Source: Promethearchaeota archaeon Loki_b32 (lineage in GTDB: Archaea; Asgardarchaeota; Lokiarchaeia; Sigyniarchaeales; SOKP01). Taken from it: a stretch of DNA of 64,000 bases. Made by a program: the position numbers and the translations under genes. The stretch lies in contig NJBH01000005.1 of assembly GCA_005223125.1 (NCBI GenBank), forward strand, positions 1 through 64,000. Direction: 5' to 3'. Shown here one piece after another: positions 7,619 through 59,304 of this stretch. The first letter of the stretch is position 1; every line of letters starts with the position of its first letter. Below the pieces are notes generated by a model. The model saw only the letters and a program-made list of their open reading frames with translations. It searched no databases and was not told the DNA's origin.

Positions 7619-7771
7619 TTATTAATGAATTAATTCTTTATTTACTTATTATTAAATTGTGAGATAATTTATCAATATTCTCTTTTTTATTTGTAATTTA
7701 ATAATAAATCAATTAAAAGGAGAATCCTATTTTATTTTAATAACAAATATTAAAAATCTAAAGTTGATTTC

Positions 7772-8344
7772 GTGAGTTATTTAAGGGATAATAAAGTCTG
7801 GGAGGAAGACGACAATATAAATTGGGATGTTATAGAAATTTCAAAAGTAGACGACAAAATTATTAAGAGGTTAATTGAGAATCTAAAGTTAGATAAATCT
7901 GATTTATCGGAGAACTTTTTTATATCTTTTGAAAGTCTTTTAAAACTAGGAAAAAAGATTGAACCTGTACTTGATTTATTCATTAAAGAAACAACTGAAA
8001 TTCATAATTGTAAAGTAGACACATTCAATTTTATTTTGGATTTTGTGAAAAACAACACTCTAAAGCATGTTTTGGTACCTCAATTATATCATCCAGATTT
8101 CATTACTAGAGCCAGAACTGTATTGAAACTTGAACAGGCTGGTGATTTAAGTTATCTAAATTTTATATTACCATTATTAAATGATCCTGATGACTCAGTT
8201 CGTTGGTCGGTAATACGATTTTTGAATACACACATACATCTTTTAAAAAATCCCTTAGTTTATAAGGAAATAAAATGTTATATTGGAAAAGAATTAAATC
8301 CCGTAATTAGAGAAAAAATGAAGAAATTATTTAAAAAGATATAA
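7772..8344 (+). CDS. HEAT-repeat (PBS-lyase-like) protein
   Basis: LVPQLYHPDFITRARTV and ILPLLNDPDDSVRWSVIRFL repeats. Confidence 0.75.
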   Translation: MSYLRDNKVWEEDDNINWDVIEISKVDDKIIKRLIENLKLDKSDLSENFFISFESLLKLGKKIEPVLDLFIKETTEIHNCKVDTFNFILDFVKNNTLKHVLVPQLYHPDFITRARTVLKLEQAGDLSYLNFILPLLNDPDDSVRWSVIRFLNTHIHLLKNPLVYKEIKCYIGKELNPVIREKMKKLFKKI

Positions 8345-11281: not shown

Positions 11282-12244
11282 ATGGAAGATACCGAATATT
11301 TGCCTCTTAACCAATTGTTCGATTCAATTGGCATCATAGAAAAAGGTATTGAAAGAATGTACCATTATCTCCTATTAAATAAGAGAATAGATAATTTAAA
11401 AGAAGTGTGTGATCAATTCAATCTCTCATTAAAAAGAGGGTATAAAATCTGCTCGGTATTAAGTGATCTAGAACTTGTACAAATTTATGATAGACCAATG
11501 AAAATTCACATTGCTAATCCAATAATGACTTTGTGGCAAAATTTAATCCAAAAACGAATTGAAGACCTTAGAAATCAGTTCAATGAAAAAAGAGATAAGT
11601 GTGAATCTGCAATTGAAGATTTTACTAGAAATTATAAATTAGATCAGCAAGTAGTTCAAGAACCAGTTGAATTTATCAACTATAGTGTTAGTAATTTTGA
11701 TGAATCGTATCATCAGTTCTTAGCCCAAAGTGAATGTAAAATTGCTATAGGTATCAGATATGATAACCCTTTAATTTCCATGATCCATGAGGATCGTTTC
11801 CAAAATATCCCTGATGATATGAGAACTTCTATGCGAGCCGGTATGAGTAGGATTAAAGAAAATCTAAGAAGTATAAGTGTGCAAGTTATCTTCAATTCTG
11901 AGGTTGCTAAAGATCTTTTAAGCAGTAATGAATTTAAACTTCTCACTAATCATGTTGAACCATACAATTTGGAGTTTAAAAAATTAGAGATTCATGTTAC
12001 AGATGAAGCATTTAGTAATTTCAGTTTAACCGATAATGAACTTATTCAACCTAGTTTTGATCCTACAAACATTCTAATCGGTGCTTACATCTCCCGGAAT
12101 AAAAACATTTACCAAATATTCTACGATAAATTTAATGAGATTTTTGAAAAGGGCATACCAATGAATCGATTTATCACTGAACAAAAAGATATTGGTATTG
12201 ATTCACTCTCAGAAACACAATTATTTGTTCTATGTGTAATGTGA
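11282..12244 (+). CDS. TrmB-like transcription regulator (N-terminal wHTH, coiled coil, effector-like domain)
   Basis: N-terminal ...MYHYLL...LKEVCDQFNLSLKRGYKICSVLSDLELVQ...RP pattern. AGGTGA SD overlaps the Rab stop codon. Confidence 0.55.
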   Translation: MEDTEYLPLNQLFDSIGIIEKGIERMYHYLLLNKRIDNLKEVCDQFNLSLKRGYKICSVLSDLELVQIYDRPMKIHIANPIMTLWQNLIQKRIEDLRNQFNEKRDKCESAIEDFTRNYKLDQQVVQEPVEFINYSVSNFDESYHQFLAQSECKIAIGIRYDNPLISMIHEDRFQNIPDDMRTSMRAGMSRIKENLRSISVQVIFNSEVAKDLLSSNEFKLLTNHVEPYNLEFKKLEIHVTDEAFSNFSLTDNELIQPSFDPTNILIGAYISRNKNIYQIFYDKFNEIFEKGIPMNRFITEQKDIGIDSLSETQLFVLCVM

Positions 12245-12286
12245 GCAAGATTTTTATTTTTCAAAATAAAAAATTAAAAAATAAAA

Positions 12287-13822
12287 TTATTCTTTTTTCT
12301 TTTTTTGCATTGCCTTTCTGAATTTTTCAAGCATTTTTCGAGGAGTTACCGTTGGTCTTTCGTATTTTCGTAATTTAGATTTGATTCCAAAAAGATATTT
12401 AGCAATATCCTTAAGCCTTTCAGTATCGTAGCGCATCATCATTGTGATTGTTTCCATAGCGGGACTCCCACCTCCGTGTAACCCAGCTACTTGCATTAAA
12501 CCCCCCAAATCAGAAACTACCATAGCTTCTATCCCCCGAAAACAACGATAAATGTATTCTGGTTTGACTCTAGGGTTTCTTTTCAAATATTTCATTGCAA
12601 GATCTCCCACTTCCTCAGAAAAGAAAGAACCTTCAAATGGTAAAGTAGCAATTAATCCTCCAGACAAATCTGCTAAAATTTTATATTCTTCATAGATATT
12701 TTCTCCAGCTAATCTTCTCCCCGCATTTGTAAGAATTTCATCGGGAATCTGAGTACCAGATGGAGATTTCTCTGAATGCCTTGCACTTGATTCTCCTGCC
12801 GCAAAAACAAGCTCAGCAATTCCTATAATATGGGACAATTTATCTTGAACATGAGAAGCTTTCTCTATTCCATTGTATTCAGCAACTAAGGCAGCAGCAG
12901 AAGCTAAAATTTCTGATACTGCTGGTTTACATCCAGTATATGTATGACGATGATAGTGAGCAAACATTAGAGCTAAGAATCCAGCGTAAGGAGTTTGTCT
13001 AGGGTCTCCATGACCATTTAGAAATATTCGTTCATTTGGTACAAAAACGTCATCAAAAATAATATATGTTTCAGCATCCCCCATTTGTAATCCTGGAGCA
13101 TCCATGTGTTCACTTTTTCTATAATATGCGGGTCTTGTGAGCAATTTGACACCATCCCAATCTCCCGGTAATGCAAATGCTACAGCATAATCTTTATCTT
13201 CTGGACCCATATACCTGCAAGGAACGACAATAAATTCATCAGCATATGGAGTATTGGTAATATTAATTTTACATCCTCTTACAACGATACCATCATCTCT
13301 GGTTTCTATAACTCTCAGATATTGGTCTGGATCTTCTTGTTGGTGTGGTCGTTTTAAACGATCTCCTTTAGCATCAGTTTGAGCACAACTAGCTACTATG
13401 TCTCGATCTTGAAAATATTCTAAATATTTTATAAATCTTTTATAGTGGTCCGTTCCGAGAGCTTGGTCCATCTCATAGGTAATAACAGAAAGAGCATTTA
13501 ATGAATCGATACCCATACATCGCTGAATACAACCTCCAACACGATGACATAATAATCGAGTCATTTTTTGTCTTTTTAATAGATCTTCTTTACTTTGATG
13601 TATATGACAAAAACGATTTATCTTTTTTCCCGTTATATGAGAAGTTACTGTGCATAGATCCTCATATTCTGGGTCGTAAGCACGATCGAACGTCTCTCTA
13701 ATAATATTCATCCCTCCCCGAAGACGAGGGTCATCTCTACCAACTTTTTCTTCGCCAATATATACATTTGGCTTCATCTTCTTTAAATCTTCAACATACT
13801 GTTCAAAAGTACGAATTTTAAT
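12287..13822 (-). CDS. 4-hydroxybutyryl-CoA dehydratase (AbfD/HpaB family) homolog
   Basis: CIQRC and HRHTYTGCK Fe-S ligand motifs, AQTDAKGDR, HGGGS. The family-like N-terminus IRTFEQYVEDLKKM lies in frame upstream of ATG 13777. Confidence 0.9.
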   Translation of the reverse strand: MKIRTFEQYVEDLKKMKPNVYIGEEKVGRDDPRLRGGMNIIRETFDRAYDPEYEDLCTVTSHITGKKINRFCHIHQSKEDLLKRQKMTRLLCHRVGGCIQRCMGIDSLNALSVITYEMDQALGTDHYKRFIKYLEYFQDRDIVASCAQTDAKGDRLKRPHQQEDPDQYLRVIETRDDGIVVRGCKINITNTPYADEFIVVPCRYMGPEDKDYAVAFALPGDWDGVKLLTRPAYYRKSEHMDAPGLQMGDAETYIIFDDVFVPNERIFLNGHGDPRQTPYAGFLALMFAHYHRHTYTGCKPAVSEILASAAALVAEYNGIEKASHVQDKLSHIIGIAELVFAAGESSARHSEKSPSGTQIPDEILTNAGRRLAGENIYEEYKILADLSGGLIATLPFEGSFFSEEVGDLAMKYLKRNPRVKPEYIYRCFRGIEAMVVSDLGGLMQVAGLHGGGSPAMETITMMMRYDTERLKDIAKYLFGIKSKLRKYERPTVTPRKMLEKFRKAMQKKKKE

Positions 13823-13937
13823 CCACTCTTAATTAAAATGTTAAAATTAGAATTAATATATTATAATAAGTAATTGAAAGTCAATTATAAATTAAATGCC
13901 TAAAAAATTAAACTCTTGGTATTATAGTTTCACTTCA

Positions 13938-16001
13938 TTATGCATTTATTTCAGGAGCTTTCTTAATAAAAATCTCATTTATTAATGATTCAAATATAGG
14001 ATGATCTTTTATTTCAATTACTCGATTAGCCTTTAAATATTTGTTCATTGTATCCCGTATAATATCAGAATTTTGTATGCTTTCTACAAATTGTGTTAAT
14101 TTTTGGTTAGCTAGATATGTTTGCCCTTTGAATATATAGCAAATTGAGAAAGAACTAACTGATTGCATTAGTATCGTAAATTCACCAAATTTAGCACGAT
14201 CAAGCCTTTTGGCAAAAATCTCTCCGCTAAAAGAATCAAATGCTGTTAAAAATCCACTTATAAGATCATTTTTGAAAGACCATTCTTTTGTAAAGGGATT
14301 AGAGAATAACGGGAATCCACCTCCTCCAATAATTAAAAGCAATATTGGTGTTTCATGAGTTAATTCAGGTGGTTCTATAGCGCGTTTTCCTTGCATTCTA
14401 TCTATAACTCCTTTAAAAGATGCTAATTTTATGCGTTCTGACATGGGTGCATTTTCTTTTTCTAGATTTTTCCATGTACTTAACTGCTGCAATAATGTAT
14501 CATGTTCGACTGAGATTCTAATAGCTAACAAGTTAAGACCATGGAGTTCAGCTATTTGTTGAGATTGTGTTATTAGTTGTTCTGCTTCCTTGATCTGCAT
14601 TTGAATTAGAGCCAGTTTTGCTTGTAATAATTTAATTTCTGCTAACCATAAATAAGCATTTTGTTTTTCTGCTATCTTGGAAATTTGAGCGATTAATGGA
14701 TTTAATTCATCCAAAACTTCTATGTTATTAGTAAAAGATAATTCTTCCAAAAAAATTTCACATAAGTTCACAAGCGCTAAGAGATTTAATTGAGGAGTGC
14801 TAATTCCTTCCCCAATTATTTGCTTTAGTAATAATTCTGCTTCTGTTCGATTCCGAATCCGATTACTCTGTTTCAAGACAAGTGCTTTTGTTATTGAATG
14901 CACTTGGCTGAATACTTTACTCTCATACTGATTGGTGAATTGCTCTAACCGCGTCAAATATAATTGTGCTTGTTCAAGAGAATTATTATCTAAACTAGTT
15001 AAAATTAAATAAAAAAGTGAAGATGACATTCCGTAAACTGAATTAAATTTTTCTGAAAGTGCCATGCTATGTTGAAGATATTCTATAGCTTTATCAAAAT
15101 CTCCTTTCATCCTATAAGTAGCACCGATTCCCATTAAATTTTCTAGGAACTCATTATTATAACCTTCCTTTTCAGCAAGTTTAACTGCTCGGTTATAATA
15201 ACTTAAAGTTCTGTCTAATTCACCCATTTCTTTATAGATGGCACCTAGAAGATGCAATATGCTGAATTTTGTAACAATACCAATTTCGTCAATATTTAAT
15301 CCTTGTCTACCAGTTTTTAACGCTCTATCAAAATCCCCTTTCATATAGTGACAAAGTCCAATTAAATTAAGACTTGCTCCAATACCTATTTGATTGTTTA
15401 ATTCTTTTTGTATTACCAAACTTTTCATAGCATAACCTAAAGCTTTATCAGGTTCACTCTTAAAAATGTAAATATCCCCCATTTGACAATACATAAGTGC
15501 TATTTCGAGTTTTTCTTTTAAATCTTCTTCTAATGTTAACCATTCTTGAGATAGCTCAATCGCCTTACTGTGTTCAGTTGCATAATGACAAACAATGGAT
15601 TTTATAAATAAAATATCAGCTTTTTGTTTTGAAAATTCTGAGGATGAATCTTTTAAAATAGAATTAATCAATCTTTCAGCTTCTGAAATATATTCTAATG
15701 CTTGGTCTAGTTTTCCGTAAAATATAATATACGCTTTTATAACTAGAGAATCAATTACTTTAGGAATAAGTCCTATTTTTTGACTTAATTGGTAAGCCTT
15801 TTCTCCGACTTCTACAGCCTTTTTATATTGTTCTTTATAGCAATATATTTTACTTTTTAAAATCAATATTGATAACTGTTCTTTAGTCTCGTTTATTTTC
15901 TTCTTCTCGAGATTTGTAACTATCTTAAGCGCGTCCTCAAATTTAGCTTGATACATTATTTGTTCCGCGTAGGTTAACTCTTTAAGTATTGAATCGGACA
16001 A
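13938..16001 (-). CDS. TPR-repeat protein with C-terminal longin-like domain
   Basis: Multiple TPR motifs. The C-terminus LLIIGGGGFPLFS...LISGFLTAFDSFSGEIF...FGEFTILM...CYIFKG has a longin-like pattern. Confidence 0.85.
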   Translation of the reverse strand: MSDSILKELTYAEQIMYQAKFEDALKIVTNLEKKKINETKEQLSILILKSKIYCYKEQYKKAVEVGEKAYQLSQKIGLIPKVIDSLVIKAYIIFYGKLDQALEYISEAERLINSILKDSSSEFSKQKADILFIKSIVCHYATEHSKAIELSQEWLTLEEDLKEKLEIALMYCQMGDIYIFKSEPDKALGYAMKSLVIQKELNNQIGIGASLNLIGLCHYMKGDFDRALKTGRQGLNIDEIGIVTKFSILHLLGAIYKEMGELDRTLSYYNRAVKLAEKEGYNNEFLENLMGIGATYRMKGDFDKAIEYLQHSMALSEKFNSVYGMSSSLFYLILTSLDNNSLEQAQLYLTRLEQFTNQYESKVFSQVHSITKALVLKQSNRIRNRTEAELLLKQIIGEGISTPQLNLLALVNLCEIFLEELSFTNNIEVLDELNPLIAQISKIAEKQNAYLWLAEIKLLQAKLALIQMQIKEAEQLITQSQQIAELHGLNLLAIRISVEHDTLLQQLSTWKNLEKENAPMSERIKLASFKGVIDRMQGKRAIEPPELTHETPILLLIIGGGGFPLFSNPFTKEWSFKNDLISGFLTAFDSFSGEIFAKRLDRAKFGEFTILMQSVSSFSICYIFKGQTYLANQKLTQFVESIQNSDIIRDTMNKYLKANRVIEIKDHPIFESLINEIFIKKAPEINA

Positions 16002-34411: not shown

Positions 34412-37400
34412 ATGTATAAATATAAGGGGAAGGCACAATCATATCTTCTCTCTTTTTATCTGAATTTTAAGTGGGTAAAAATGTTTGAGGTAGGGGTATT
34501 TACTGATCCTTTGGAAGAAAAATTTAAATTGATAACAGAAAATGTAAATGAACTAATTTCAATTGTAAATAAAGATTATATCATTGAATTCATAAACATG
34601 GTTCCTCATTTAAATGTGTTAGGTTATAATGAGGAAGATTTAAAAGGAAAATCTTGGTTAAAGTTAGTTCATCCTAAAGATCTTAAAAAAGTTAAAAATA
34701 ATTTGAAATTGGATTCTGAACATATGCATTTAATTAGAGAAATAAGGTTAATTGATAAAAAGGGAAATTTTAAAAAATTTAAATTTGATGTTAGAGCATT
34801 TGTAGATAATAGTAATACTAATAAATTTATAATAATCTTAAGTAATATCACTAAACTTATAGATAAAAGAGAAACAGAGCAACAGTTAAAAGAATCAGAA
34901 GAAAAGTTCAGAACTATTACAGAACAATCATTAATGGGTATTATAATCTTACAGAACAGTAAAATCCAATATATAAATAAAACAGCAGCTCATATGGTTG
35001 ATTATACACCTAATGAAATTTTAAATTTTCCTTCTAGAGGTTATATTAATTTAATATATCATGCAGATAGAAAAATGGTAATAAAACAAGCTAAAAAGAG
35101 GCAAAGGGGAATTAAAACCAAAATTACTGGATATGAATGTCGATGTCTAAAAAAGAATGGAGATCTTATTTGGCTTCAAATTTATTCAAAAACAATAACA
35201 TATCATGGAAAATTCGCAGATTTAATTACAGTAATTGATATTACTGATAAGAAAAAAGCAGAGATCAAATCAAAAGAGTCTGAGCAAACTTTAAGGTATC
35301 TACTTTCATCCAATCCAATTGTAATCTATACATCTCGGATTACTGAAGTTCGGGTGTTCACCTTTGTAAGCGAAAATGTTAGAGATATGACTGGTTACTC
35401 TCCAGAGGATTTCATAAAGAAATCACATTTTTGGAATTTAAAAATCCATCCAGAAGATAAGGATAGGATCCAATCACAATTAAGAAATTTATCTAAAAAA
35501 GATAATTTAGGTCTAGAATATCGATTTAGATTTAAGGATGGGATTTATCATTGGATTCAAGATGAGTTTAAAATTGTAAAAGATAAGAAAGGACTCCTCT
35601 TAGAAACAATTGGCTCTTGGGTAGATGTCTCTGTAAATAAAAATATTGAAGAAAAAGTGAAGTTTCAAGCTAAACTTGTTGAGACAATCTCAGATGCAAT
35701 AATTTCTACAGATTTAAAGTTTAATATTATTACATGGAATAAAGCAGCCGAATCAATTTATGGTTGGAAAGCAGAAGAAGTAAAGAGAAAAAATATTAGT
35801 GATGTTATTCCGATTGAATATCCATACGATGACCAAGATATTGTGTTAAAGGAGTTTTTTGAAATAGGAAAATGGAAAGGGGAGGTAATTCAACCACGGA
35901 AAAATGGTAATTTAATTAATATTTTAACTTCAATTTCCATGATTAAAGGCAATAATGGTAAACCCATTGGAGTTGTAGCAATTAATCGTAACATCACTGA
36001 ACGTAAGAAAGCTGAGCAAGAATTAAAAGAATCGGAAATGAAATATCGAGATTTATTTGAAAATTCTCCAATTGCATTATTTGAACAAGATTTTTCTGAA
36101 TTAAAAACTTATTTAGATGATTTGAGAGCTTCAGGAGTAAGTGATTTTGAAAAATATTTAGACGAGAATCCTGAAGAAATTATGAATTTCACCTCTATGA
36201 TCAAGTTAATTGATATAAATAGAAAAACAGTGGAGCTATACAATGTTAATAGTAAAGATGATTTCATTAAATGGAAATGCAAAATAGAAAAAAGATTATT
36301 TCAAGAAGACATGACTCCAGAAGTACTTTTAACAAATAAGCAAGAGTTATTATCTTTAATCCATGGAGAAACTACGTTCGAATCAGAAGTTGTCACTAAA
36401 ACCTTCACAGGTGAAAAAATTTATGTCTATATGAAAACATTGATTATTCCTGGATATGAAAAAACTTGGTCAAAAGTTATTGTGTCTCTCTTAAATATAA
36501 GCGATCGAATTAAAACGGAGCTAAAGTTAAAAGAATCAGAGGAAAAATTCAGAACAATTGCAGAACAATCTTCATTAGGGATGATTATTCAGCAAGATGG
36601 CTTTATTAAATTTGCGAATTCAGCTGTTTCAGATATTATTGAGTATCCATTGGAAGAAATTCATAAATGGACTGCAGAAGAGACTCTACAATTCGTATAT
36701 AAAGAAGATTTGCCACTAATAATTGATAAATTAAAACAAAGACAGGAGGGTGATTTTGAGTCTATAAATCAATATGAATGCAGAGCAATTACAAAATCAG
36801 GTAAAATTAAATGGATAAACGTCTATACAAAACCTATTATTTATCAAGGGAAGAATGCAGTTTTATCAACATTTATAGATATCACAGAGAAAAAGAAAGT
36901 AGAAGAAGAACTAAAAGATGTAAGTCGATTAAAATCAGATTTAATAAGTAGGACATCTCATGAATTAAAAACACCTTTGGTTTCAATAAAGGGATATGCT
37001 GATTTACTATTAAGCCAACATTATGAAGAACTCGACTTTTATACAATTTCGGTATTACATGAGATTAAACAAGGTTGTTATCGACTAGAATCATTAATAA
37101 AAGATCTTTTAGAGACCTCTGAATTAGAAACTGGAGAGGTAGAATTAAACAAGTTAAAGGATGATCTTGCATTTCTAATCAGGTTTTGTGTGAAAGATTT
37201 AAAGGGATTGATAGAAACGAGAAAACATAATTTAATTTTAGATATACCAGAGAATTTGGTTACATTATTTGAAAAAGAAAGAATCTATGAAGTTGTAATA
37301 AATCTATTAAGCAATGCGATTAAATATACACCGCCAAATGGACGAATCATAATTAACTCTGAAAGTAAGGATAATAACTATATTGTATCGATAAAAGATA

Positions 37401-38959: not shown

Positions 38960-41848
38960 TCAAACATCAATATAAAGAGCAGGTTTAAATGGTTTTGCTC
39001 TAATGGCCCTATGTTTGGGATCAAAATCAGAGTTTATTACAATAACAGATTTAACTCGCTTTTCTAGATACGATTTATAATGCTCTAGCAACTTTATCTC
39101 ATCAATTTGTGGTATTTTCTTCTCCCAAATCCGTTCTTTTAATTGAGTTTTAATAAAAGGAATAAGATCTTTATTAGATATTAACTCTATATCTTTTTTC
39201 AAATCAGACATTATTTCAGCAAAATTATCCTTTTTTGATATAATTAGATATGAAACTCGATATTTCCATTTAGGGGCTGTATATAAATGTATTTTATTAA
39301 ATTTCTCTGATTTTATTACTTTTTTTATATTGAAAACATCCTCGATGACATTTGAGATATATTCAAATTCAAGTTCAAGTTTGCTATTAATATATTGTTT
39401 ATTAAAATCTCCCCATACTTGAGTTGATATAAAACTCTCATTTCCAGCAATTTCCCATAATTCTTCACATAAATGTGGCATAGTTAGGGAAAGAATTTTC
39501 AACCAATCAGGATAAATTAGTTTAAAAACTGTTAGGAAATCATTTATATTATCTGTATCCCTTGAAAAATCCTGTATCAGATTAAACGCTTCATAAAAAG
39601 ACGTTTGGAGATATCTTCTTATATTAAATTCTTTTAATGCCGCTTCTGCCTCAACGAACTTCTTGATAATTTTTGATAGCATTGCTTTTGAATAATTAGA
39701 TTTAATATTTTCATATTTTGCTTTTTGTTCCCTTAATTGATTAACTTTATCAGAAAAAAATTCGAAGAACTTGAGGACATGGTTTCTAACGGTCTCAATT
39801 TCTTTCTTGCGGAAATCCATGTATGCACTGAAATCAGCATTGTGGGAGATATAAAATCTAAATAAATCAGCCCCGTAATTCTTTTGGATATCCGCAAGAG
39901 AAATTACATTCCCCTTTGACTTACCCATTTTCTGTCCTTCAATAATTACAGGTTCAATTAACGATATTAATTTTGGCCAATTTTTTTCTGGAAAAATTGC
40001 TACATGGTGGAAAATATAAAAACTTAAGTGGTTAGAGATATGCATTATTGCTGTATGACGATGGTCAACAGGGTACCAATAGAGAAACTCATTTCGTAAT
40101 TCATTAAGGATCTCTTTACTAATATTAATCTCTTTAGAGAATTTGCTTGTAACTCCTTTTTCTAAAAAGACATAATCGAAAAATTCTGGAGTCAATTGTT
40201 CTGGTTTGATTTGATAATCTTTTATTTTATATGAAATTGTATAGAAAGCCATATAAATTGTTGAATCACTCAAAGATTCTATTATCCAATCTTTATTAAA
40301 AGGTAGTTTAGTTCCTATTCCTCTTAATCTAGCACACGGTCTTTTTTCTAGCCAATTAAATATATTCTCAAAGTTTAATCGATATTTTTTTGGTACTATT
40401 TTCATCTTATTAAGGCATTTTAACGATTCTTCTTTCCAATCTCCTGCTTCAAAATTAAGAAACCATTGATCCTTTAGAATAGAAACGATAACTTCTGTAC
40501 CACATCTACATGTAAGATTTTTTGTAACAGGAATATATAATTTGTCTGCTTTATTTTCTTCAATCAAGTCATATGAAACTTGTCTAGCAGCATCACTCAC
40601 TTTCATTCCTTGATATTTTCCACATTTATCATTAAGTACACCATTATAATACTCATCTTTATAATTATCACTAGTTGCTAAATCGAGTTTTTCTGTGTCT
40701 TTTTGGGAATCGACTTCAAACTTGTCACAATAGATTTTTGCTGGAAAGTCTTTAAATCCTTTTAATTCAATTATTTTAATTGGATATATTAATTCTATTT
40801 GTCGTTCATTCAGATCATATCTCTTAATTAGATCTTTATTCTTTTGTAAATCGATTAGGGCAATATAATCATAAGGAGCGTGAGCGGGAACTGAATAAAC
40901 AACACCTGTAGCTGTTGAGGTTTCAACAAAATCTCCTGGTAAAATAGGAATTTCTTTAATCCCATAAAAATCTGCTGCATTTTTTCCAATAATTTCTTTT
41001 CCACTAATCTTATCCACGATCTTAACATCTTTCCCTTGATTCTCTAATAAGAATGTTGCTTCTTCAGAGATAAACCAAACTTCATTGTTCACAGAAGCTT
41101 TTATATAGTTTCCATTAGGATTTATCCAGATATTTGTAACTCCATAAATAGTTTCTGGTCTTAGTGTAGATGCAACAAGAAAACCATCTTCAAATGGGAA
41201 TTTAATACATATATATTCATTAATACTTAGATCCAACTCATCTCCCCGTGAAATATCATCTTCTCCAACGGCATTGTTGTCTTGAGGACAATAAAGAATT
41301 GGATATTCACCCTTTTCAATATAATCTCTCTCTTTTAAACGAAAATATTGCCATTCAATAAATTTATTATAAATTAAATCTCCAGTAGTAAATTCTCTCC
41401 TCCAATCTAAACTCATACCAATAGCCTTAAAATCAATTTTCATTGTTTTCGAAAAATAATTAACAACATTCCAAGGTTCTATAAAGCTTTCTACAATTTT
41501 TTTTACTTCTTGACGATCTTTAGTATGTAGACTAACATATTCTTTCATTCGTTCCTTTGTCAATTGATCCTTTCTTCCTATAGAAGAAGAAATTGCTAAA
41601 ACAGGTGTACCTGTAATATGAAATGCCATAGGATATAAAACCTTATATCCTTGTGCTCTATAATACCTTGCAAATATGTCTCCATTTATAAAACTCCTTC
41701 CATGGCCAATATGTAGAGGACCAGAAGCATATGGATAAGGTGATGTTATAAATATTTTCTCTTTGTTAGGATCTGGATTTGCTTCGAATATCCTTTCTTG
41801 CTCCCATCTATCTTGCCATTTCTTTTCAATTTGTTGTGGATCATACAT
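38960..41848 (-). CDS. leuS: Leucine--tRNA ligase (archaeal/eukaryal type)
   Basis: PYPYASGPLHIGH, MAFHITGTP, editing STLRPET and ATGVVYSVPAHAPYD, IESLSDSTIY, NHL, KMGKS. Confidence 0.96.
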   Translation of the reverse strand: MYDPQQIEKKWQDRWEQERIFEANPDPNKEKIFITSPYPYASGPLHIGHGRSFINGDIFARYYRAQGYKVLYPMAFHITGTPVLAISSSIGRKDQLTKERMKEYVSLHTKDRQEVKKIVESFIEPWNVVNYFSKTMKIDFKAIGMSLDWRREFTTGDLIYNKFIEWQYFRLKERDYIEKGEYPILYCPQDNNAVGEDDISRGDELDLSINEYICIKFPFEDGFLVASTLRPETIYGVTNIWINPNGNYIKASVNNEVWFISEEATFLLENQGKDVKIVDKISGKEIIGKNAADFYGIKEIPILPGDFVETSTATGVVYSVPAHAPYDYIALIDLQKNKDLIKRYDLNERQIELIYPIKIIELKGFKDFPAKIYCDKFEVDSQKDTEKLDLATSDNYKDEYYNGVLNDKCGKYQGMKVSDAARQVSYDLIEENKADKLYIPVTKNLTCRCGTEVIVSILKDQWFLNFEAGDWKEESLKCLNKMKIVPKKYRLNFENIFNWLEKRPCARLRGIGTKLPFNKDWIIESLSDSTIYMAFYTISYKIKDYQIKPEQLTPEFFDYVFLEKGVTSKFSKEINISKEILNELRNEFLYWYPVDHRHTAIMHISNHLSFYIFHHVAIFPEKNWPKLISLIEPVIIEGQKMGKSKGNVISLADIQKNYGADLFRFYISHNADFSAYMDFRKKEIETVRNHVLKFFEFFSDKVNQLREQKAKYENIKSNYSKAMLSKIIKKFVEAEAALKEFNIRRYLQTSFYEAFNLIQDFSRDTDNINDFLTVFKLIYPDWLKILSLTMPHLCEELWEIAGNESFISTQVWGDFNKQYINSKLELEFEYISNVIEDVFNIKKVIKSEKFNKIHLYTAPKWKYRVSYLIISKKDNFAEIMSDLKKDIELISNKDLIPFIKTQLKERIWEKKIPQIDEIKLLEHYKSYLEKRVKSVIVINSDFDPKHRAIRAKPFKPALYIDV

Positions 41849-41944
41849 ATTATTTCACTCTTTTTTGGGTTTTCTCTTCTTTTCTATTTAATTTTTTTTG
41901 GAGTTAAAAACCACCTATAATCTCTTTCAATTAAATTTAAACGC

Positions 41945-42004
41945 TGAGCAAACAAATCCGTAGAAAAATTAAAAGAAAAAGAATATAAGGACTTGTTTCA
42001 CTCA
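41945..42004 (-). promoter_or_regulatory. Stem-loop with U-rich loop in the leuS leader (candidate attenuator)
   Basis: UGAGU(G)AAACAAGUCC pairs with GGAUUUGUUUGCUCA: 15 bp, with two G-U pairs valid only on the minus strand. The 29-nt loop is UUAUAUUCUUUUUCUUUUAAUUUUUCUAC. Confidence 0.7.
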
Positions 42005-42061
42005 AGATAATAATAAAACTGCGAGTAAATTAACTAAGGATAGTACTTCCCTTACTTTCAT
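42002..42061 (-). CDS. Leu-rich leader peptide of leuS (MKVREVLSLVNLLAVLLLS)
   Basis: 19 codons with 7 Leu, including 5 of the last 8 codons (TTA CTC GCA GTT TTA TTA TTA TCT). It ends 153 nt before the leuS ATG. Confidence 0.7.
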   Translation of the reverse strand: MKVREVLSLVNLLAVLLLS

Positions 42062-42087
42062 CTTTGAAGCAGTTTTATTTGAAATCA

Positions 42088-42094
42088 TTATAAA
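42088..42094 (-). promoter_or_regulatory. TATA box for the leuS leader transcript
   Basis: TTTATAA ending 26 nt before the leader ATG. Confidence 0.5.
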
Positions 42095-42294
42095 GAATAT
42101 ACATGTTTTTGTATTAAAATTTTTCTAGATTCTTTATTATTCAAGCACTAAGATTATTGTTAAATTTAATTCTATCGCGATAACTCGTTTTTTTAAATTA
42201 GTGCAAATTGTTAAATATATCCTCTTATTTCATTTTTTAAACCTCTAATTGAAATATTATTAATTATTAAAGAGCATTTGGGGATAGGGATATC

Positions 42295-45200
42295 TTGAAG
42301 GAATCGAAAATAAATAAGGAAATTAACGTAGCAATAAAATCAGAAGAAAATTTTCTCGCAATTCTTAATTCTTTAACCGATCCTATGCATATTATTGATA
42401 GAGAATACAATATCCAATTTTTAAATTCAGCTATGGTACTATGGCTTAATAAATTGAACATAAATTCTGATCTTGTTGGTAAAACTCTTTTTGAAGAGTT
42501 TCCTCTCTTAGAATATGATAAAATCCATAACGAATATGACAAAGTCTTCAAAACTGGCGAACTTTTGATAACAAAAGAAGCAACTAAGCTAACTAAAGGT
42601 ATTATATTTACTGAGACTCTAAAAATTCCAGTTAAAAGTAATGGTAAAGTTGAGCAAGTTATAACGATTATGCGAGACATTACGGAACAAAAGAAAGCAG
42701 AAGAAAAATTAAAAGCATCTGAAGAGAAGTATAAGAATATTATCAGTAACCTTATGGATATAATAATAATATTAGATCTTAAAGGCAATTTCTTATATGT
42801 CAGTCCACAAATCTATGATATTTCTGGATTTAAACAAAAAGAGATAATCGGAAAAAATGGTTTCAAGTTGATGCACCCAGATGATATCAATAAGACTACT
42901 AGTGTATTAAAGGAGGCTATAGAACAGAAGAAGAGAATTTATATCGAATATCGCACATTACATAAGCAAGGTCATTATATAGAGGTATCTGCAAGTGGTA
43001 GGATTGTAAATATAGAAGGAGAAGATCGAATTTTCGCAGTAGTAAGAGACATTTCTGAGCATAAAATTTCTGAGCAAAAATTAAAAGAATCAGAAGAAAA
43101 ATATCGTCTAATTACTGAAAATGCAAATGATATGATTGCTATTTTAAATAACAAAATGGAGTATGAATATGTAAATGAAGCTGCTTTTCTAAATATTATG
43201 GGTAGAACTAAAGATGATTTAATTGGATATAATTCTTTACATTGGGCTCATCCTGATGATATTGAAAAATCTATAAATGCTTTTAAAGATGGTTGGGAGA
43301 AAGGAGAAGCATTTATCCAAGCAAGATTCAGAGATACACAAGAAAAATATCATTCGCTCGAAGTAAGAGGAAAATTAATTATTGATCATAAAGGAGAAAA
43401 AAAGGTTTTAATAGTCTCACGAGATATTTCAGAAAGAAAGGAGGCCGAACAGAAATTAAAAGATTCTGAAGAAAAATATCGATATTTAATTGAAAATTCT
43501 ATTGAGGGTGTTTGGGTAATAGATTCTGAAGCAAAAACAATCCTAGTTAATCCTAGTATGGCACATATTTTAGGTTATACGGTAGAAGAAATGATTGGAA
43601 AATCTTTATTCTCATTTACAAATGAAGAACAGGTAAAAATTACCAAAAATCATTTAGAGAAAAGAAAGAAAGGCATCTCTGAAGAAAGAGACGCCTACTT
43701 GCTTCATAAAGACGGAAATAAGGTTTATCTGAGAATAAGAGCAACCCCTATTTTCGACAGTGAAGGTAATTATGAAGGAACATATGCTTTTTTGGCAGAT
43801 ATAACCCAAAAAATGTTAGCGGAACAGAAATTGAAAGAATCGGAAGAAAGATTTAGAACATTATTTGAAATCGCTCCCGCTTCTATTTCTGTTTTAGATT
43901 TAGATGGGAATATTATCTTAAGCAACCAGAAATTTTGTAATCTTCATGGTGTGAAAAACCCAGAACTATTGGAAGGAAGGAAAATTTTAGAATTCATAGC
44001 AGAAAAAGATTGGTCAAAATTAAAGGAAGCTATGAAAAAGTCTTTTGAAGGATTACCCAGAGGACTTAATCAATATACAATGCTTAAAGATAATGGAACA
44101 GAATTTCCTGCCGAAGCAATTAGTTCAGGTATTAAAAATAAAAAAGGTGAAATTATAGGTCTTATAGGAGTTGCTCAGGATATTACAGAACGTAATATTG
44201 CTGAGCAAAAACTAAAGGAATCTGAAGAAAAATATTCACATCTTTTCAAGAGTTCTCCGTACTCAATCCTAATTGCTAATATGAATGGAAAAGTAATTGA
44301 TTGTAACTTTTTAGAAGATAAAATAACAGGATATTTAAAAGAGGAAATAATCGGTAAAAACATGCTTGATATACCAATGTTTCCGAAAGAGTATCTTCCT
44401 ATAGTGATTAAAGATTTCAAAACTCTACTAAAAGGAAGAATTCCCAAACCTAATGAAATACAGATTCGAAAGAAAAATGGAACTCTGGTGTGGGTACAGC
44501 CGACTGCTTCTATTTTTAAAATCGAAGGTGAATCTTACATGTAGATTATAATGCAAGAGATTACTGAAAGAAAGAATTCTGAAGAAAAATTAAAAGAATC
44601 CGAAGAAAAATTCAGAACTATTGCAGAACAATCTTTCTTAGGTATTGCTATTCTACAAAATGATACTGTTAGTTATGTTAATGAGCAACTTGCTTATAAA
44701 TTTGGTTATACCACAGAGGAAATTATGAAGTGGGGAGTAGGAGGTTTTATGAAAGTTATATATCCCGATGATAGAAAAATGGTTGCTGAGCAAGCTAAGA
44801 AAAAGCAATCGGGTGAACCAGATACTGTTAATCAATATCAATTCAGAGGAATAAAAAAGAATGGAAATATAATATGGTTAGAAATATTTTCAAAAACAAT
44901 TAATTATAAGGGAAAACCAGCTGATTTTGTTACAATTCACGATATAACTGAAGAGAAGCTAGCTGGACAAAAATTAAAAGAATCTGAAGAAAATTTCAGA
45001 ACTATTGCTGAACAAGCTTTTATGGGAACTTTAATAATTCAAAATGATCAAGTGACGTATGTGAATGATGCTTTGCTTCAAATCTTTGAGTTCTCGCAAG
45101 ATGAAGTTAATTATTGGAAGAAAGATAATCTACTCAAACTAATTCATCCTGAAGATTTACATTATCTAAGAGAATATCGCGAACAATTACGAAGTGGTGA

Positions 45201-46075
45201 ATCTGATATAAAGCCGTATTATTCTTATAGAGTTTTCACCAAATATGGTAAGATAAAATGGATCGATCAGTTCTCAAGACCTATTATTTATCGAGGGAAA
45301 CCAGCAGAATTAGTCACCATCATGGATATTACTGAGAAAAAAAAAAGCCGAACAAGAATTAGTAAAACTCAACAGCTTAAAATCGGAGCTTCTTAGAAGA
45401 ACTTCCCATGAGTTAAAAACACCTCTTGTCTCAATTAAGGGATTTTCTGATCTTTTATTAACTGTACATAAAGAAAAATTAGATGATTATGTGTTAGCTA
45501 CTATTCATGAAATAAGACTCGGATGTGAAAGGCTAGAAAGTCTTATCCAAGATATTTTAAAAACATCTGAATTAGAAGCTGAATCAGTTGAGTTAAAAAA
45601 ATCAGAAGAAGATTTATCATTTTTAATAAAATTGTGTATAAAGGAATTACAAGGCTTAATAAGGTTAAGAAATCATGAAACCAGCATAGATATACATGAT
45701 AAGTTAATAACTAGCTTTGAACCAGGCCAAATCCATCTTGTAATTAGCAATTTACTTAATAATGCAATAAAATATACTCCACCTAATGGTAAAATTGAAG
45801 TTAAATCTGCTATAACAGATAATTCTATTTTAATTTCGATCCATGATAATGGAATCGGAATAACCAATGAAGAAAAAAAAAGGTTATTCTCCCAATTTGG
45901 AAAAATTGAACGATACGGACAAGGGCTTGACATAATATCCGATGGTTCTGGTTTAGGATTATATATAACCAAAAGAATTGTAGAATTGCATGGTGGAAAG
46001 ATATGGGTTAAATCTAAAGGAAGAAACAAAGGTTCTACCTTCAATTTTACTCTTCCATTAATTATTGAGAAATAA
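42295..46075 (+). pseudogene. Multi-PAS sensor histidine kinase, interrupted twice
   Basis: About 8 PAS repeats. In-frame TAG at 44542-44544 (YM*IIMQEITERK). An A10 run at 45337-45346 shifts frame before ...LLRRTSHELKTPL. HATPase domain runs to 46075. Confidence 0.88.
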
Positions 46076-48412: not shown

Positions 48413-50410
48413 TTATTGAAGCTTATCTTTCATCTCCAAGTAGAAATCTAGTGATTCTGGGTTTCTAAGAGCTCCACGGTTAGTCACTTCCATTCCGTGG
48501 ATAATTTTTGTAACGGCAATTTCGACTTTCTTGTTACTAAAGGTATAAGGTATGCCATCTGGGGGGGCTTGAAAGATTAGTTTAGGCACATGTCTTGGGG
48601 AGGTTTTTTTTCGTAGAGTTTGCTTTATTTTCACTTTTAAATCATCGTTTAGATCATATCCTTCATTTACCAATACGAACATTAATATTCTGATATCACC
48701 ACTGAACTTTTGACCAATCACTAAGGAATCTGCTATTTCTGGTAGTTGTTCAACGACATTATAGATTTCTGCAGTTCCTATTCTTACACCACTGGGCTTA
48801 AGTACGGCATCCGAACGTCCCCAAAATGTAATTCCACCAGTATCACTATGAATAACTATATAATCCCCATGCCTCCATATCATTTTTCCTACATCCTTAT
48901 AATAATCAAAATACGCGGCTTTATATTTTGTCATGTTATCATCATCACCCCAGAAATGAGTTGGCATTGAAGGAGCAGGTGCCTCACATACGAGTTCTGC
49001 TTGCTCGTCTTCAATGGGTTCTGCATTTTCGGAATAAGACTCAACTTTCATTGCTAAAGCTCGACCTTGTAATTCTCCAGAATATACCGGAAGAATAGGT
49101 ATTGCTCCCGCAAAACAACCATTTATATCAGTTCCCCCACTTATTGAATTAAAAAACAAGTCTTTCTTAATTTCTCTATATACATACTCGAATCCTTCTG
49201 GAGAAAGTGTAGATGCGGTTTGTGAGATTTCTCTTAGCGTACTTAAGTCATATTTTTCAGCTGGTTTAACCCCAAGACTCATGAGATAATGAATATAAGC
49301 TGCACTTGTACCGAAAATTGTTATTTTATGTTTTTCTATTAATTCAAAGAATCTAAGAGGATCGGGATAGAGGGGATTCCCATCATATAAAAAGATTGTT
49401 GCTCCCACTGCTAGTGCACTAATCAACCAATTCCACATCATCCAACTTGGAGCGGTAATATAATTTATAATATCGCTCCTTTTGCAGTCAGTAGAAAGGA
49501 TTAACTCTTTTAAATGATTGATAAGCACGCCTCCAGCACTCTGTACCATGCATTTTGGCTTCCCAGTTGTTCCCGAGGAAAACATTACATATAATGGATG
49601 ATCAAATGGTAATTGCTCAAATTCTAGTGGGGGATCAGTATCTTTAGAAATAAAATCCTCCCAGTTTACTGCTTTAGGAATACTACTTACATCACACTTT
49701 CCTTCAGTTACATAGGATACTACTATTACTTTTTCTATTGAAGGAATAGCCTCAACAACGGCTTTTACATTTTCTCTTATATCAAACACTTTATCTCTAT
49801 AAAAATATCCGTCCACAGTAAAGAGAATTTTAGGCTCAATTTGACTAAATCTATCGATCACCGCACTTGGTTGAAGTTCACCACCACAAGATGCCCATGT
49901 ACCACCTAAAGCTACAGCTGCGAGCATAGCAACAGGTGTTTCGATTAAGTTTGGAATAAAAGATACCACTCTATCTCCTACATTAACACCGGCTTCCTTT
50001 AGAGATTTAGCTAAGCGAGCCACAGTTTTATTCAATTCAGCATAAGTAATTTGCTTCGATACTTTGGTTTCACCTTGGAAGTCGAAGGCTAATTGATCAT
50101 CCTTATACTTCAAAAGGTTTTCAGCAAAGTTTAATTCCGCTCCAGGAAACCATTTTGTACCAGGAAAAACATTTAAGTCTTCTACTACTTTGTTAAAAGG
50201 TTTAGAAGCAATAATACCCGAAAATTTCCACATAGCATCCCAGAAATCTGGTATCTGTTCTACGGACCATTTGTATAGATCTTTCCCTCCTTTCAAATTC
50301 TGATCGTATTTTTTATTGACAAATTCAATAAAGCGGGTTGCTTCCGCGTTTTTAATCCACTTTTCAGATGGTTCCCATAGTTTTTTTCTTACATCACTCA
50401 TATTTTTCAC
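48413..50410 (-). CDS. Acetoacetyl-CoA synthetase
   Basis: WFPGAELNFAENLL, MFSSGTTGKPKC, WMMWNW, SISGGTDI, WRHGD, GRSD...GVRIGTAEIY, KKVE. Confidence 0.93.
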   Translation of the reverse strand: MKNMSDVRKKLWEPSEKWIKNAEATRFIEFVNKKYDQNLKGGKDLYKWSVEQIPDFWDAMWKFSGIIASKPFNKVVEDLNVFPGTKWFPGAELNFAENLLKYKDDQLAFDFQGETKVSKQITYAELNKTVARLAKSLKEAGVNVGDRVVSFIPNLIETPVAMLAAVALGGTWASCGGELQPSAVIDRFSQIEPKILFTVDGYFYRDKVFDIRENVKAVVEAIPSIEKVIVVSYVTEGKCDVSSIPKAVNWEDFISKDTDPPLEFEQLPFDHPLYVMFSSGTTGKPKCMVQSAGGVLINHLKELILSTDCKRSDIINYITAPSWMMWNWLISALAVGATIFLYDGNPLYPDPLRFFELIEKHKITIFGTSAAYIHYLMSLGVKPAEKYDLSTLREISQTASTLSPEGFEYVYREIKKDLFFNSISGGTDINGCFAGAIPILPVYSGELQGRALAMKVESYSENAEPIEDEQAELVCEAPAPSMPTHFWGDDDNMTKYKAAYFDYYKDVGKMIWRHGDYIVIHSDTGGITFWGRSDAVLKPSGVRIGTAEIYNVVEQLPEIADSLVIGQKFSGDIRILMFVLVNEGYDLNDDLKVKIKQTLRKKTSPRHVPKLIFQAPPDGIPYTFSNKKVEIAVTKIIHGMEVTNRGALRNPESLDFYLEMKDKLQ

Positions 50411-57120: not shown

Positions 57121-59304
57121 TTAGAGCGCTAATTGGGCATCAGAAGGACTATATTTACCAGTACCTGTTATTTCATAGGTTATTTCTAAGTGGTCTCCTA
57201 CTTCTAAAACATCAATATCCCATTTTAATGTATCTTGTCCCACTTCATCTGTAATTTCAGGAGTCATGGAATAGGTTCCATATTCAAATGAATCTGGAAC
57301 TTTATCGAGTAGTACAAGATGATGCAATTTAGATTCACCAATATTTTCAAGCGTTAATATAATTCTGTAGTTCCCGAGATCTCCAATAGGTACAACTTCC
57401 TTTCCAATCCTGAATTTTCGTCTGATGTGCATTGCCTCGATTACAGGAACCTCTGGTTTGAATTCTAACTCTTGACTTACTGGAAAAGTATTAGCGAGAT
57501 AAGTAATTTCAGATTCAAAGGTAGATTCACGTGCAGGATTTACGCAATGAATAGGATATTCAAACTCCATTGTTGATTCAGGCTTAAACATACCAGTGCT
57601 ACTGTCTTTTAGATCTCTAAGATCAATTTTGAATTCATTATTCTCAAAACTTACGGCAACATCAGCTACTTCAACTTCTTCTCCATCCCATACTAGTTTA
57701 ATCTCATCTGCTTTTGGTGGTTGATATTCTTCTGAAAAACTCTGCTGAACAAGTGTTACCTCATTTAGAGGAGCCGAACCATTATTGACTAATTTAAGTG
57801 TAGCGACAACATCTTTAGTTCGATAAGTAGGAACTTCAGTCAAGTTATAGGACATTACTCCAGTAATACTACCAATCTCTAAGATAACATCTGAAAGAGC
57901 AATTGTTCCATTTACGATGGTTTGAAAATCAGGCATTACCCTAAATTCTAATTTTTTCCTGAAAGTAGGATATTCTTCACTCTCAAATTCCCATTTCGTT
58001 GAGTGCCATTGTGCGCCACTAGGAAGTAAGGGTACATCATTTGGGTCAATATCTACAAATTTTTTTGACTCATCTTCAGGAGAATATACATCCGCATTGA
58101 AAAGTTGAATAATAAATTCCGAAGAATTATCAAATACAAGTTTACAGTCGAATATTCCTGGTTCTTCATCTCTTTCAACTGTATCTATATAAAATTTATT
58201 TCTTGTATACGCATCAAACTTACCTATATCTAAACCTTCAGCAAAAGAAGATGCGCTTTGGTATGTGACTTCAATTGTTCCTGTTCGTCTTTTAGTTATA
58301 TCATTAACCATGATGTTACAGGTGAATTTCAACATCACAGTGTACTCTGGGGCCAATTTATCAATAGTCCAGACTATTTGATTTCCTTCAATATTAGCTC
58401 TTCCTTCAGTAGTATCTTTGATCATCGGGTTTGTAAAATCATCTGGAATATTTTTTACAACTTTAATATTGGAAACAGGTTTATCAAACATACTTCTAAG
58501 GGCTATAGCGAAGTGAACCACATTTTCTTTATCAATTGAGATTCCGAAAGATTCTAGGCCACTTTCAACAAGAGTTCCTCCATCTCCCCAAGTCTCGCCC
58601 GTTATTGTTTCCTCTTCTTCCTCTTCTTCTTCCTCCTCTTCGGCTTCAGGTTCTTTTGGAGATTTAGCAGGTTTAGCAGGTTTAGCAGGTTTAGAGGGCA
58701 CACCACTTTTTTTATCCTTTAATTTTAATAACTCTTTCTCAATATCATTTATGTTTAATGCATCATCCGCGTTTGGATTTGTATTAATAAACTCTTTCAC
58801 AAGAAGGAGATTTTTAATATCCTTTGTTATTTTAAATTCTCTTGAGTCTACATTATCAGGAGATTCAGTACCTAATTCTCTTATTGATATATCTTTTGAT
58901 TTCAAATCTGTACTTCCAATATTTTCAAGTGAAACATCAATATCCCATAATCTATCAACTTTACTAGAATTCTCAATGTTAAATTTTCCACTATGGGCAA
59001 ACGATTTAATATTAACATCATGATCTTGTTCTACATCAACAGTTTCAATTATTTTCACTAAGGCTAATAGTCCCTCCCTATTACCATTTTTCAAAACGAT
59101 ACTACCTTCGAGTTCTCCAGTGTCTTCATCATATGTTTCAATAATAGGTGTAGATGTATCTCTATCAATTAATTCAACTAGTCCTGTGTCCATGTCTTTT
59201 CTTTTTAATGCCTCAGCAATAATCTCTTCTTCAGCTTCTGTCGCATCATAGCCCATTCGTGTCGATGGTCTCGTTACTTTCTTTTTCTTATCTTTTTTAG
59301 CCAT
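57121..59304 (-). CDS. Acidic multi-beta-sandwich protein, no signal peptide
   Basis: 727 aa with repeated Ig-like patterns (V.L.N.G..PL..V.L, W.I..L), a basic N-terminus and an internal low-complexity loop. Confidence 0.85.
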   Translation of the reverse strand: MAKKDKKKKVTRPSTRMGYDATEAEEEIIAEALKRKDMDTGLVELIDRDTSTPIIETYDEDTGELEGSIVLKNGNREGLLALVKIIETVDVEQDHDVNIKSFAHSGKFNIENSSKVDRLWDIDVSLENIGSTDLKSKDISIRELGTESPDNVDSREFKITKDIKNLLLVKEFINTNPNADDALNINDIEKELLKLKDKKSGVPSKPAKPAKPAKSPKEPEAEEEEEEEEEEETITGETWGDGGTLVESGLESFGISIDKENVVHFAIALRSMFDKPVSNIKVVKNIPDDFTNPMIKDTTEGRANIEGNQIVWTIDKLAPEYTVMLKFTCNIMVNDITKRRTGTIEVTYQSASSFAEGLDIGKFDAYTRNKFYIDTVERDEEPGIFDCKLVFDNSSEFIIQLFNADVYSPEDESKKFVDIDPNDVPLLPSGAQWHSTKWEFESEEYPTFRKKLEFRVMPDFQTIVNGTIALSDVILEIGSITGVMSYNLTEVPTYRTKDVVATLKLVNNGSAPLNEVTLVQQSFSEEYQPPKADEIKLVWDGEEVEVADVAVSFENNEFKIDLRDLKDSSTGMFKPESTMEFEYPIHCVNPARESTFESEITYLANTFPVSQELEFKPEVPVIEAMHIRRKFRIGKEVVPIGDLGNYRIILTLENIGESKLHHLVLLDKVPDSFEYGTYSMTPEITDEVGQDTLKWDIDVLEVGDHLEITYEITGTGKYSPSDAQLAL
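58663..58694 (-). repeat. 9-bp tandem repeat encoding (PAK)x3 next to a poly-Glu tract
   Basis: TTTAGCAGG x3.5, protein PSKPAKPAKPAKSPKEPEAEEEEEEEEEE. Confidence 0.9.

Follow-up and report, generated by a model that had tools for sequence, protein, structure and literature searches.

The leuL, ilvL, thrL and pheM-pheST leaders are classical bacterial leader-peptide transcription attenuators, while Salmonella mgtA/mgtL and Escherichia coli tnaC are factor-dependent bacterial attenuators. Classical attenuators have been predicted upstream of leuS in Streptomyces (PMC1262725), C. glutamicum ilvBNC carries a three-hairpin attenuator (PMC11857589), and mycobacteria contain leaderless poly-Cys sORF attenuators (10.1101/834739). 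For archaea, no attenuation or antitermination was known as of 2021 (PMC8448881), and Ribo-seq papers mention uORFs only as candidates. In the incompletely covered literature we found no report of an archaeal leader-peptide attenuator, including after the 2021 statement, which agrees with the remark in an earlier note on this DNA that no classical attenuator is known to be described for an archaeal aminoacyl-tRNA synthetase (aaRS) gene. Here, we describe a leader found upstream of leuS in an Asgard genome and in about 50 related genomes. By analogy, it looks like a bacterial-style amino-acid gauge in a new domain, unlike the classical kind that works on an intrinsic terminator.

Like classical attenuators, the leuS leader has a short ORF rich in cognate codons, its control codons lie within a helix, its downstream helices exclude each other and its target is an aaRS gene. 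It differs from them in its archaeal host, its TATA promoter, control codons that abut the stop codon and the lack of a GC hairpin with a U run behind it; its U tract lies in a loop and would itself be switched. As for mgtA/mgtL and tnaC, we propose that the position of the ribosome on the leader ORF sets whether a protein terminator can reach an unstructured loading site, although the putative factor is the nuclease aCPSF1/FttA reading U tracts instead of Rho, and no sequence homology to these systems is claimed. The mycobacterial poly-Cys sORFs are similar in being leaderless (predicted for leuS), in their run of cognate codons and in occurring at several independent loci per genome that each answer to an amino acid, but their helix hides a downstream ribosome-binding site, whereas no helix is found at the leuS start. 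T-box leaders and the actinobacterial LEU element likewise stand for RNA-level control of synthetase or leucine genes. An Rfam scan of our leader gave a best score of 17 bits against a cut-off of 55, with no leader family, T-box or riboswitch; unlike in a T-box, the specificity lies in a conserved open ORF.

The window analysed comprises 64,000 nucleotides of Promethearchaeota archaeon Loki_b32 (contig NJBH01000005.1, positions 1 to 64,000), and all positions without a contig name refer to it. The gene downstream of the leader (38960-41848, minus strand, 962 aa) scored above the NCBIfam cut-off with TIGR00395 and PRK12300, which identifies it as an archaeal-type LeuRS, one of two LeuRS genes in the source genome. 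Its nearest named relatives belong to Promethearchaeota MAGs (87-88% identity), in line with the Asgard leuS named in the earlier note. Divergently from leuS, a multi-PAS histidine kinase is encoded in three ORFs of 749, 281 and 194 aa (42295-46075, plus strand), a split that possibly reflects frameshifts or assembly errors.

A block of conserved columns in alignment A1 contains a BRE and a TATA box (42112-42128, minus strand; TATA 42119-42112). DNA upstream of this block varies among relatives, as does the adjoining gene. At the source locus the TATA box is located 31 nt 5' of the uORF start codon, and in most of 48 leaders its 5' end lies about 29-35 nt before the ATG. With normal archaeal spacing between TATA box and transcriptional start site, these distances would leave a 5' leader of 0-5 nt and place transcription initiation at or within about 4 nt of the uORF ATG. 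Judged by this spacing, the leuS transcript is probably leaderless or nearly so. The sequence TTTATAA at 42094-42088, previously taken for the TATA box, overlaps the uORF ATG (42088-42086) and was rejected as a promoter element in favour of the conserved box further upstream.

The uORF extends over 28 codons (42002-42088, minus strand; MISNKTASKMKVREVLSLVNLLAVLLLS*) and contains seven Leu codons, all within the last 13. It had been described as a 19-codon frame starting at ATG 42061, with seven Leu codons, five of them among the last eight, and the end TTA TTA TTA TCT TGA (TGA 42004-42002). The codon content and the stop are as described, but ATG 42061 is not conserved among relatives and was discarded as the start; the frame is open for nine codons further 5', and the ATG at 42088-42086 is invariant in an alignment of 47 sequences.

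A Leu-ended uORF with its stop at the stem base was present at all 49 archaeal-type leuS loci from genomes of the source organism's family, which are non-independent samples, and at 37 of 38 loci of an independent metagenome set representing 30 distinct peptides. The RNA covariance model matched 39 of 40 metagenome loci. At the 49 genome loci the uORF has 26-32 codons and ends 112-164 nt before leuS (a shorter distance at one truncated locus is unreliable). The other two reading frames are interrupted by stops in 48/48 and 46/48 leaders, most changes fall on third codon positions and length changes keep the frame. Each peptide contains 6-12 Leu, and the last 12 codons of the leuS uORFs comprise 329 Leu versus 3 Ile, 4 Phe and 1 Met in 576 positions. 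The stop can be TGA, TAA or TAG, yet its place at the foot of the stem is fixed; one exception, L037, has its stop shifted by three codons. SECIS-dependent recoding of UGA was ruled out by the three kinds of stop codon and the lack of a conserved in-frame UGA.

Within a single genome, the Leu run is only moderately unusual. At least five Leu in the last eight codons occur in 7 of 1496 intergenic uORFs of the source genome, TTA makes up 50% of its Leu codons, and the whole 222-nt leader folds no better than shuffled sequences (z 0.05). An unbiased genome-wide ranking of uORFs, which recovered the Trp leader described below, left the leuS uORF outside the top 45 because Leu is common. The case therefore rests on conservation. 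The abundance of TTA and the folding of the whole leader are what would be expected if the features had arisen by chance in AT-rich DNA; this is refuted by the 49/49 and 37/38 loci together with the covariation of two helices (see below), and among control leuS loci a Leu-ended uORF is no more frequent than expected by chance (1/38 in other Asgard families, 2/18 in other archaea). We regard a chance origin as practically negligible. On the strength of its conservation the leuS uORF is under selection.

Downstream of the stop codon, a stem of 15 bp with one bulged A starts at the UGA and closes a 29-nt U-rich loop, exactly where the earlier note had placed it. Its fold reaches -15.6 kcal/mol on the leuS strand (z -3.4, 0/200 shuffles as good) compared with -9.6 on the opposite strand, which bears out the proposed strand preference. 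This stem, helix A, is formed by segment 1 (41989-42004, minus strand, as are all following segments), which begins at the stop codon, and segment 3 (41945-41959). Between them, segment 2 (41960-41988) is the loop, with a U tract consisting of a core (41982-41971) and a second U run (41968-41964). Segment 4 (41914-41928) can pair with the U tract and also with the top of segment 1; these pairs make up the core of a second helix, B, whose formation is incompatible with a complete helix A. If the 5' half of segment 1 is free, segment 5 (41901-41913) pairs with it and thereby lengthens helix B.

Both helices are backed by compensatory changes, in tests on A, B and the helix P0 described below that correct only partly for kinship. 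For helix A, 87.5% of the cells are paired and 10 of 15 pairs show two-sided changes (0/500 shuffles), compared with 32-49% paired cells in slid registers. The core of helix B is paired in 77% of the cells, with two-sided changes in 11 of 15 pairs (0/500 shuffles), and its extension by segment 5 is favoured in cognate over non-cognate combinations (-6.5 versus -5.0). An alignment-free comparison of cognate and non-cognate pairings among 48 members with less than 75% identity supported A, the B core and the lower extension of B, while two control pairings showed no difference. Since A and B covary and share strands, they are mutually exclusive; their dependence on the ribosome is modelled. In nearly all members the finished leader folds most stably with helix B (mean -26.9 versus -15.0 kcal/mol for the early fold), suggesting that A forms first and is then replaced by B, and the covarying extension of B into segment 1 argues for an exchange between the two. 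Helix A and the B core may also coexist as a pseudoknot. A model with a single stem, as originally proposed, is right in that stem A is conserved and covaries, but it missed helix B and P0, which covary as well. The uORF, its register with the stem and the covariation of the stem are all conserved in orthologous leaders, where the earlier note had suggested looking for them.

A third helix, P0, lies within the uORF. Its 5' arm (42069-42079, minus strand) covers codons 4-7 and its 3' arm (42012-42022, minus strand) the Ala-Val-Leu-Leu codons, with 6-7 nt left between its end and the stop. The cognate duplex has -12.9 kcal/mol, compared with -8.3 for non-cognate and -6.9 for codon-shuffled duplexes (0/20000 permutations), and Val-rich paralogues possess matching Thr-rich 5' arms. 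P0 pairing explains the conservation of the N-terminal uORF codons, and two of the Leu codons also serve it. The control codons are therefore located in a helix, which might act as a pause signal.

This bears on two readings in which the ribosome is not the sensor. According to the first, the product of the uORF is a small hydrophobic peptide with a function of its own, and the RNA structure merely ends or stabilises the uORF transcript, as a basic N-terminus, a hydrophobic C-terminus and a conserved length might indicate. However, the hydrophobic stretch spans only about 10 residues, the middle of the peptide is unconserved, P0 already accounts for the N-terminus, and uORFs before leuS almost lack Ile, Phe and Met, although Ile is dominant in paralogues. 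As mutually exclusive helices are also left unexplained, we consider a peptide function very improbable. According to the second, the switch is read by a protein, a tRNA or a metabolite, and the ORF with its Leu codons is a by-product of UUA/AAU repeat pairing in P0. P0 indeed accounts for two of the Leu codons and for the conservation of the N-terminal ones, and the actinobacterial LEU element is reportedly regulated despite mutations of its Leu codons (PMC1262725). Such an origin does not predict an invariant ATG, length changes that keep the frame or a stop of three kinds in a fixed place; most of the Leu codons have no part in P0 and are written in several synonymous forms, codon identity changes with the downstream gene, and no T-box or riboswitch match exists in Rfam. 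This explanation also appears very improbable. The leuS leader is, by comparative sequence evidence, a real, conserved, multi-helix element with a cognate-codon uORF, and it very probably contains a leucine sensor that is read by the ribosome.

How this sensor acts is less certain. Our conserved-sequence data make it likely that the leader is a ribosome-timed attenuator which raises LeuRS expression when charged tRNA-Leu is scarce, and premature termination as its output is about equally likely; that more LeuRS would be made when Leu-tRNA is short is assumed from known attenuators. The 29-nt loop offers a candidate terminator for aCPSF1/FttA. The source genome encodes aCPSF1, whose Lokiarchaeota orthologue cooperates with U tracts and can stand in for the host enzyme in M. 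maripaludis or T. kodakarensis (PMC8716108). U4 occurs in the loop tract of 80 of 83 members of the leader family, compared with only 18 of 83 within 12 nt after helix B, which rules out helix B as an intrinsic terminator. In the helix A loop the U tract is about 0.87 unpaired, and helix A never pairs it. In the FttA structure, a terminator is defined by a U at -23 together with U-rich RNA at positions -30 to -36, counted from the RNA 3' end (PMC11616081). The spacing of U residues in the leader is most compatible with this footprint if the RNA ends at stop+60 to +63, which is weak evidence given how U-rich the loop is, and this is the moment when segment 3 starts to leave the polymerase and A can start zipping.

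In the proposed mechanism, a ribosome would load at the leaderless 5' end of the leuS transcript, with P0 serving as a pause or re-initiation lock. When Leu-tRNA is plentiful, it would reach the stop codon at about the time segment 3 exits RNA polymerase and cover the first 8-12 nt of segment 1. Helix A could then not zip, U-rich single-stranded RNA would be presented at the exit channel, and aCPSF1/FttA would cleave and terminate about 90 nt or more before leuS. When Leu-tRNA is scarce, the ribosome would be delayed at the Leu codons and leave segment 1 free, so that A and then the full B would tie up the U-rich RNA and allow read-through into leuS. A point against this mechanism is that direct evidence for archaeal transcription-translation coupling has been called scarce (2025 review, PMC13681488).

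Within the attenuator reading, this polarity, in which a ribosome at the stop exposes the U tract and causes termination, was already preferred in the earlier note, and our modelling leans towards it. The energy of helix A falls from -14.2 kcal/mol with no nucleotide covered from the stop to -12.0 (3 nt), -5.7 (6 nt) and -1.6 kcal/mol (12 nt), and the B core starts at about stop+14. Helix A is thus little changed with 3 nt covered and lost with 12 nt, which favours a ribosome at the stop as the decisive event. In the reverse polarity, a ribosome on the last Leu codons would block A so that B masks the U tract, and quick release would let A display it. The last Leu codons abut the stem (-5.7 kcal/mol with 6 nt covered) and only B hides the U tract, which make this order conceivable, but we consider it the less likely of the two. 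Equilibrium folding does not separate the two polarities: irrespective of whether segment 1 is covered, the U tract was equally unpaired before segment 4 and equally paired after it. The switch must therefore be kinetic.

The same ribosome sensor could have a post-transcriptional output, through endonucleolytic cleavage or stability of the full mRNA or through hand-over of ribosomes to the leuS start. Helix B is most stable in the finished leader and forms only after the polymerase has passed the U tract, and the leaderless mycobacterial sORF attenuators act on translation (10.1101/834739), both of which would suit such an output. On the other hand, no helix reaches the leuS start, whose accessibility is nearly the same in the two states (0.72 versus 0.69), an SD-like motif was present at only 11 of 49 loci, and the spacer 3' of helix B varies freely in length. 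The accessibility values and the rarity of the motif ruled out sequestration of an SD sequence at leuS. We therefore judge a post-transcriptional output unlikely, and favour termination at the U tract.

The leader is not tied to one LeuRS. It is present before three separate LeuRS lineages, and a LeuRS tree keeps the three groups apart and identified no donor for them. About half of 100 family genomes yielded an archaeal-type leuS. The leader also stands before another archaeal LeuRS group, with 33-39% identity to the window type; genes of this divergent group (L051:2166-5018 and L052:3-2069) follow a leader that is almost the same as the one before the window-type gene of a sister genome. Based on these sequences, this suggests that the LeuRS gene was replaced while the leader stayed. 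In genera where window-type leuS was not found, the leader precedes bacterial-type leuS. The source genome also encodes a bacterial-type LeuRS, without a leader (contig C11:12072-14861; L031:3073-5862), which is apparently a family-wide copy free of leader control in the source genus; its C-terminal part scores with archaeal models. Most bacterial-type leuS loci used as controls were selected for their length and for the similarity of their N-termini, with confirmation by HMM or tree for only five. At L107:422-524, a weak and degenerate version of the element (E 0.06) precedes a bacterial-type leuS and is possibly a leader in decay.

A covariance model search revealed further copies of the element before non-leuS genes in related genomes; neither BLAST nor the covariance model found a second copy of the Leu RNA family in the source genome. 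Leaders before a gene for a FrhB-like/TrmB-HTH fusion contain 39% Ile in the tail of the uORF, compared with 1% before archaeal-type leuS. The fusion protein has about 480 aa with 4Fe-4S/FrhB-like and TrmB-type HTH parts, and the element with an Ile/Val/Leu-rich uORF precedes it at L205-L207, L210, L213, L215-L219, L222 and L223, except that no such uORF was found in the L213 element. The fusion protein is possibly a redox regulator that responds to branched-chain amino acids. Its orthologue in the source genome (contig C36:28884-30299) is without a leader. Elements with Val/Leu-rich uORFs are located before acidic ORFs of 33-68 aa (L208, L209, L227, L231-L233, L237-L239), which share a weak LD-x-S...EIE motif; an Atlas query with a small downstream protein gave no named match, only unnamed ones below 0.9. 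Codon sensing predicts such a dependence of the tail residue on the downstream gene, for which neither a peptide function nor base composition offers an easy explanation.

Other amino-acid genes of the source genome, which the earlier note had proposed to scan, carry cognate-rich uORFs as well. An uORF with 7 Ile in the last 10 codons precedes ileS (contig C49, about 49100-49175), one with 4 Trp precedes trpB2 (contig C61, about 57500-57552) and a Phe-rich one precedes pheS (contig C71, about 7680-7775), whereas valS, metG, hisS and several others lacked a cognate-rich uORF in this genome. The match of codons to the downstream gene noted at leuS thus holds across several genes. Of 25 family genomes, 14 have the Trp uORF; conservation of the Ile leader extends to two genomes, as an ileS family search gave one relative. 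RNA structures of the Ile, Trp and Phe leaders did not match the Leu-family covariance model.

Some observations concern the source assembly. An HMGL-like (leuA) gene was not found in the source genome, which is 95.5% complete, and this gene content suggests leucine auxotrophy of the organism. ARAGORN called only 11 tRNAs in the whole assembly, and a tRNA-like sequence just 5' of valS (contig C61, about 34630-34740) was not among them. Adjacent lysS-like and serS-like genes of bacterial sequence style are located on contig C68 (about 11300-14000), which is a possible contaminant, the genome contamination estimate being 4.6%.

Taken as a whole, we are somewhat inclined to assume that Lokiarchaeia possess a family of ribosome-timed attenuators for Leu, Ile, Trp, Phe and mixed branched-chain amino acids, in which a leaderless uORF would gate the CPSF73-like aCPSF1/FttA via alternative helices, with a portable Leu module attached to three LeuRS lineages and other genes. 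If true, the family would be the first case of transcription attenuation to be described in archaea, and it would provide genetic evidence that transcription and translation are functionally coupled in an Asgard lineage. The 190-nt element with its mapped compensatory pairs makes archaeal attenuation and coupling testable. It would also mean that the closest prokaryotic relatives of eukaryotes sense their amino-acid supply by means of a homologue of the eukaryotic 3'-end nuclease.
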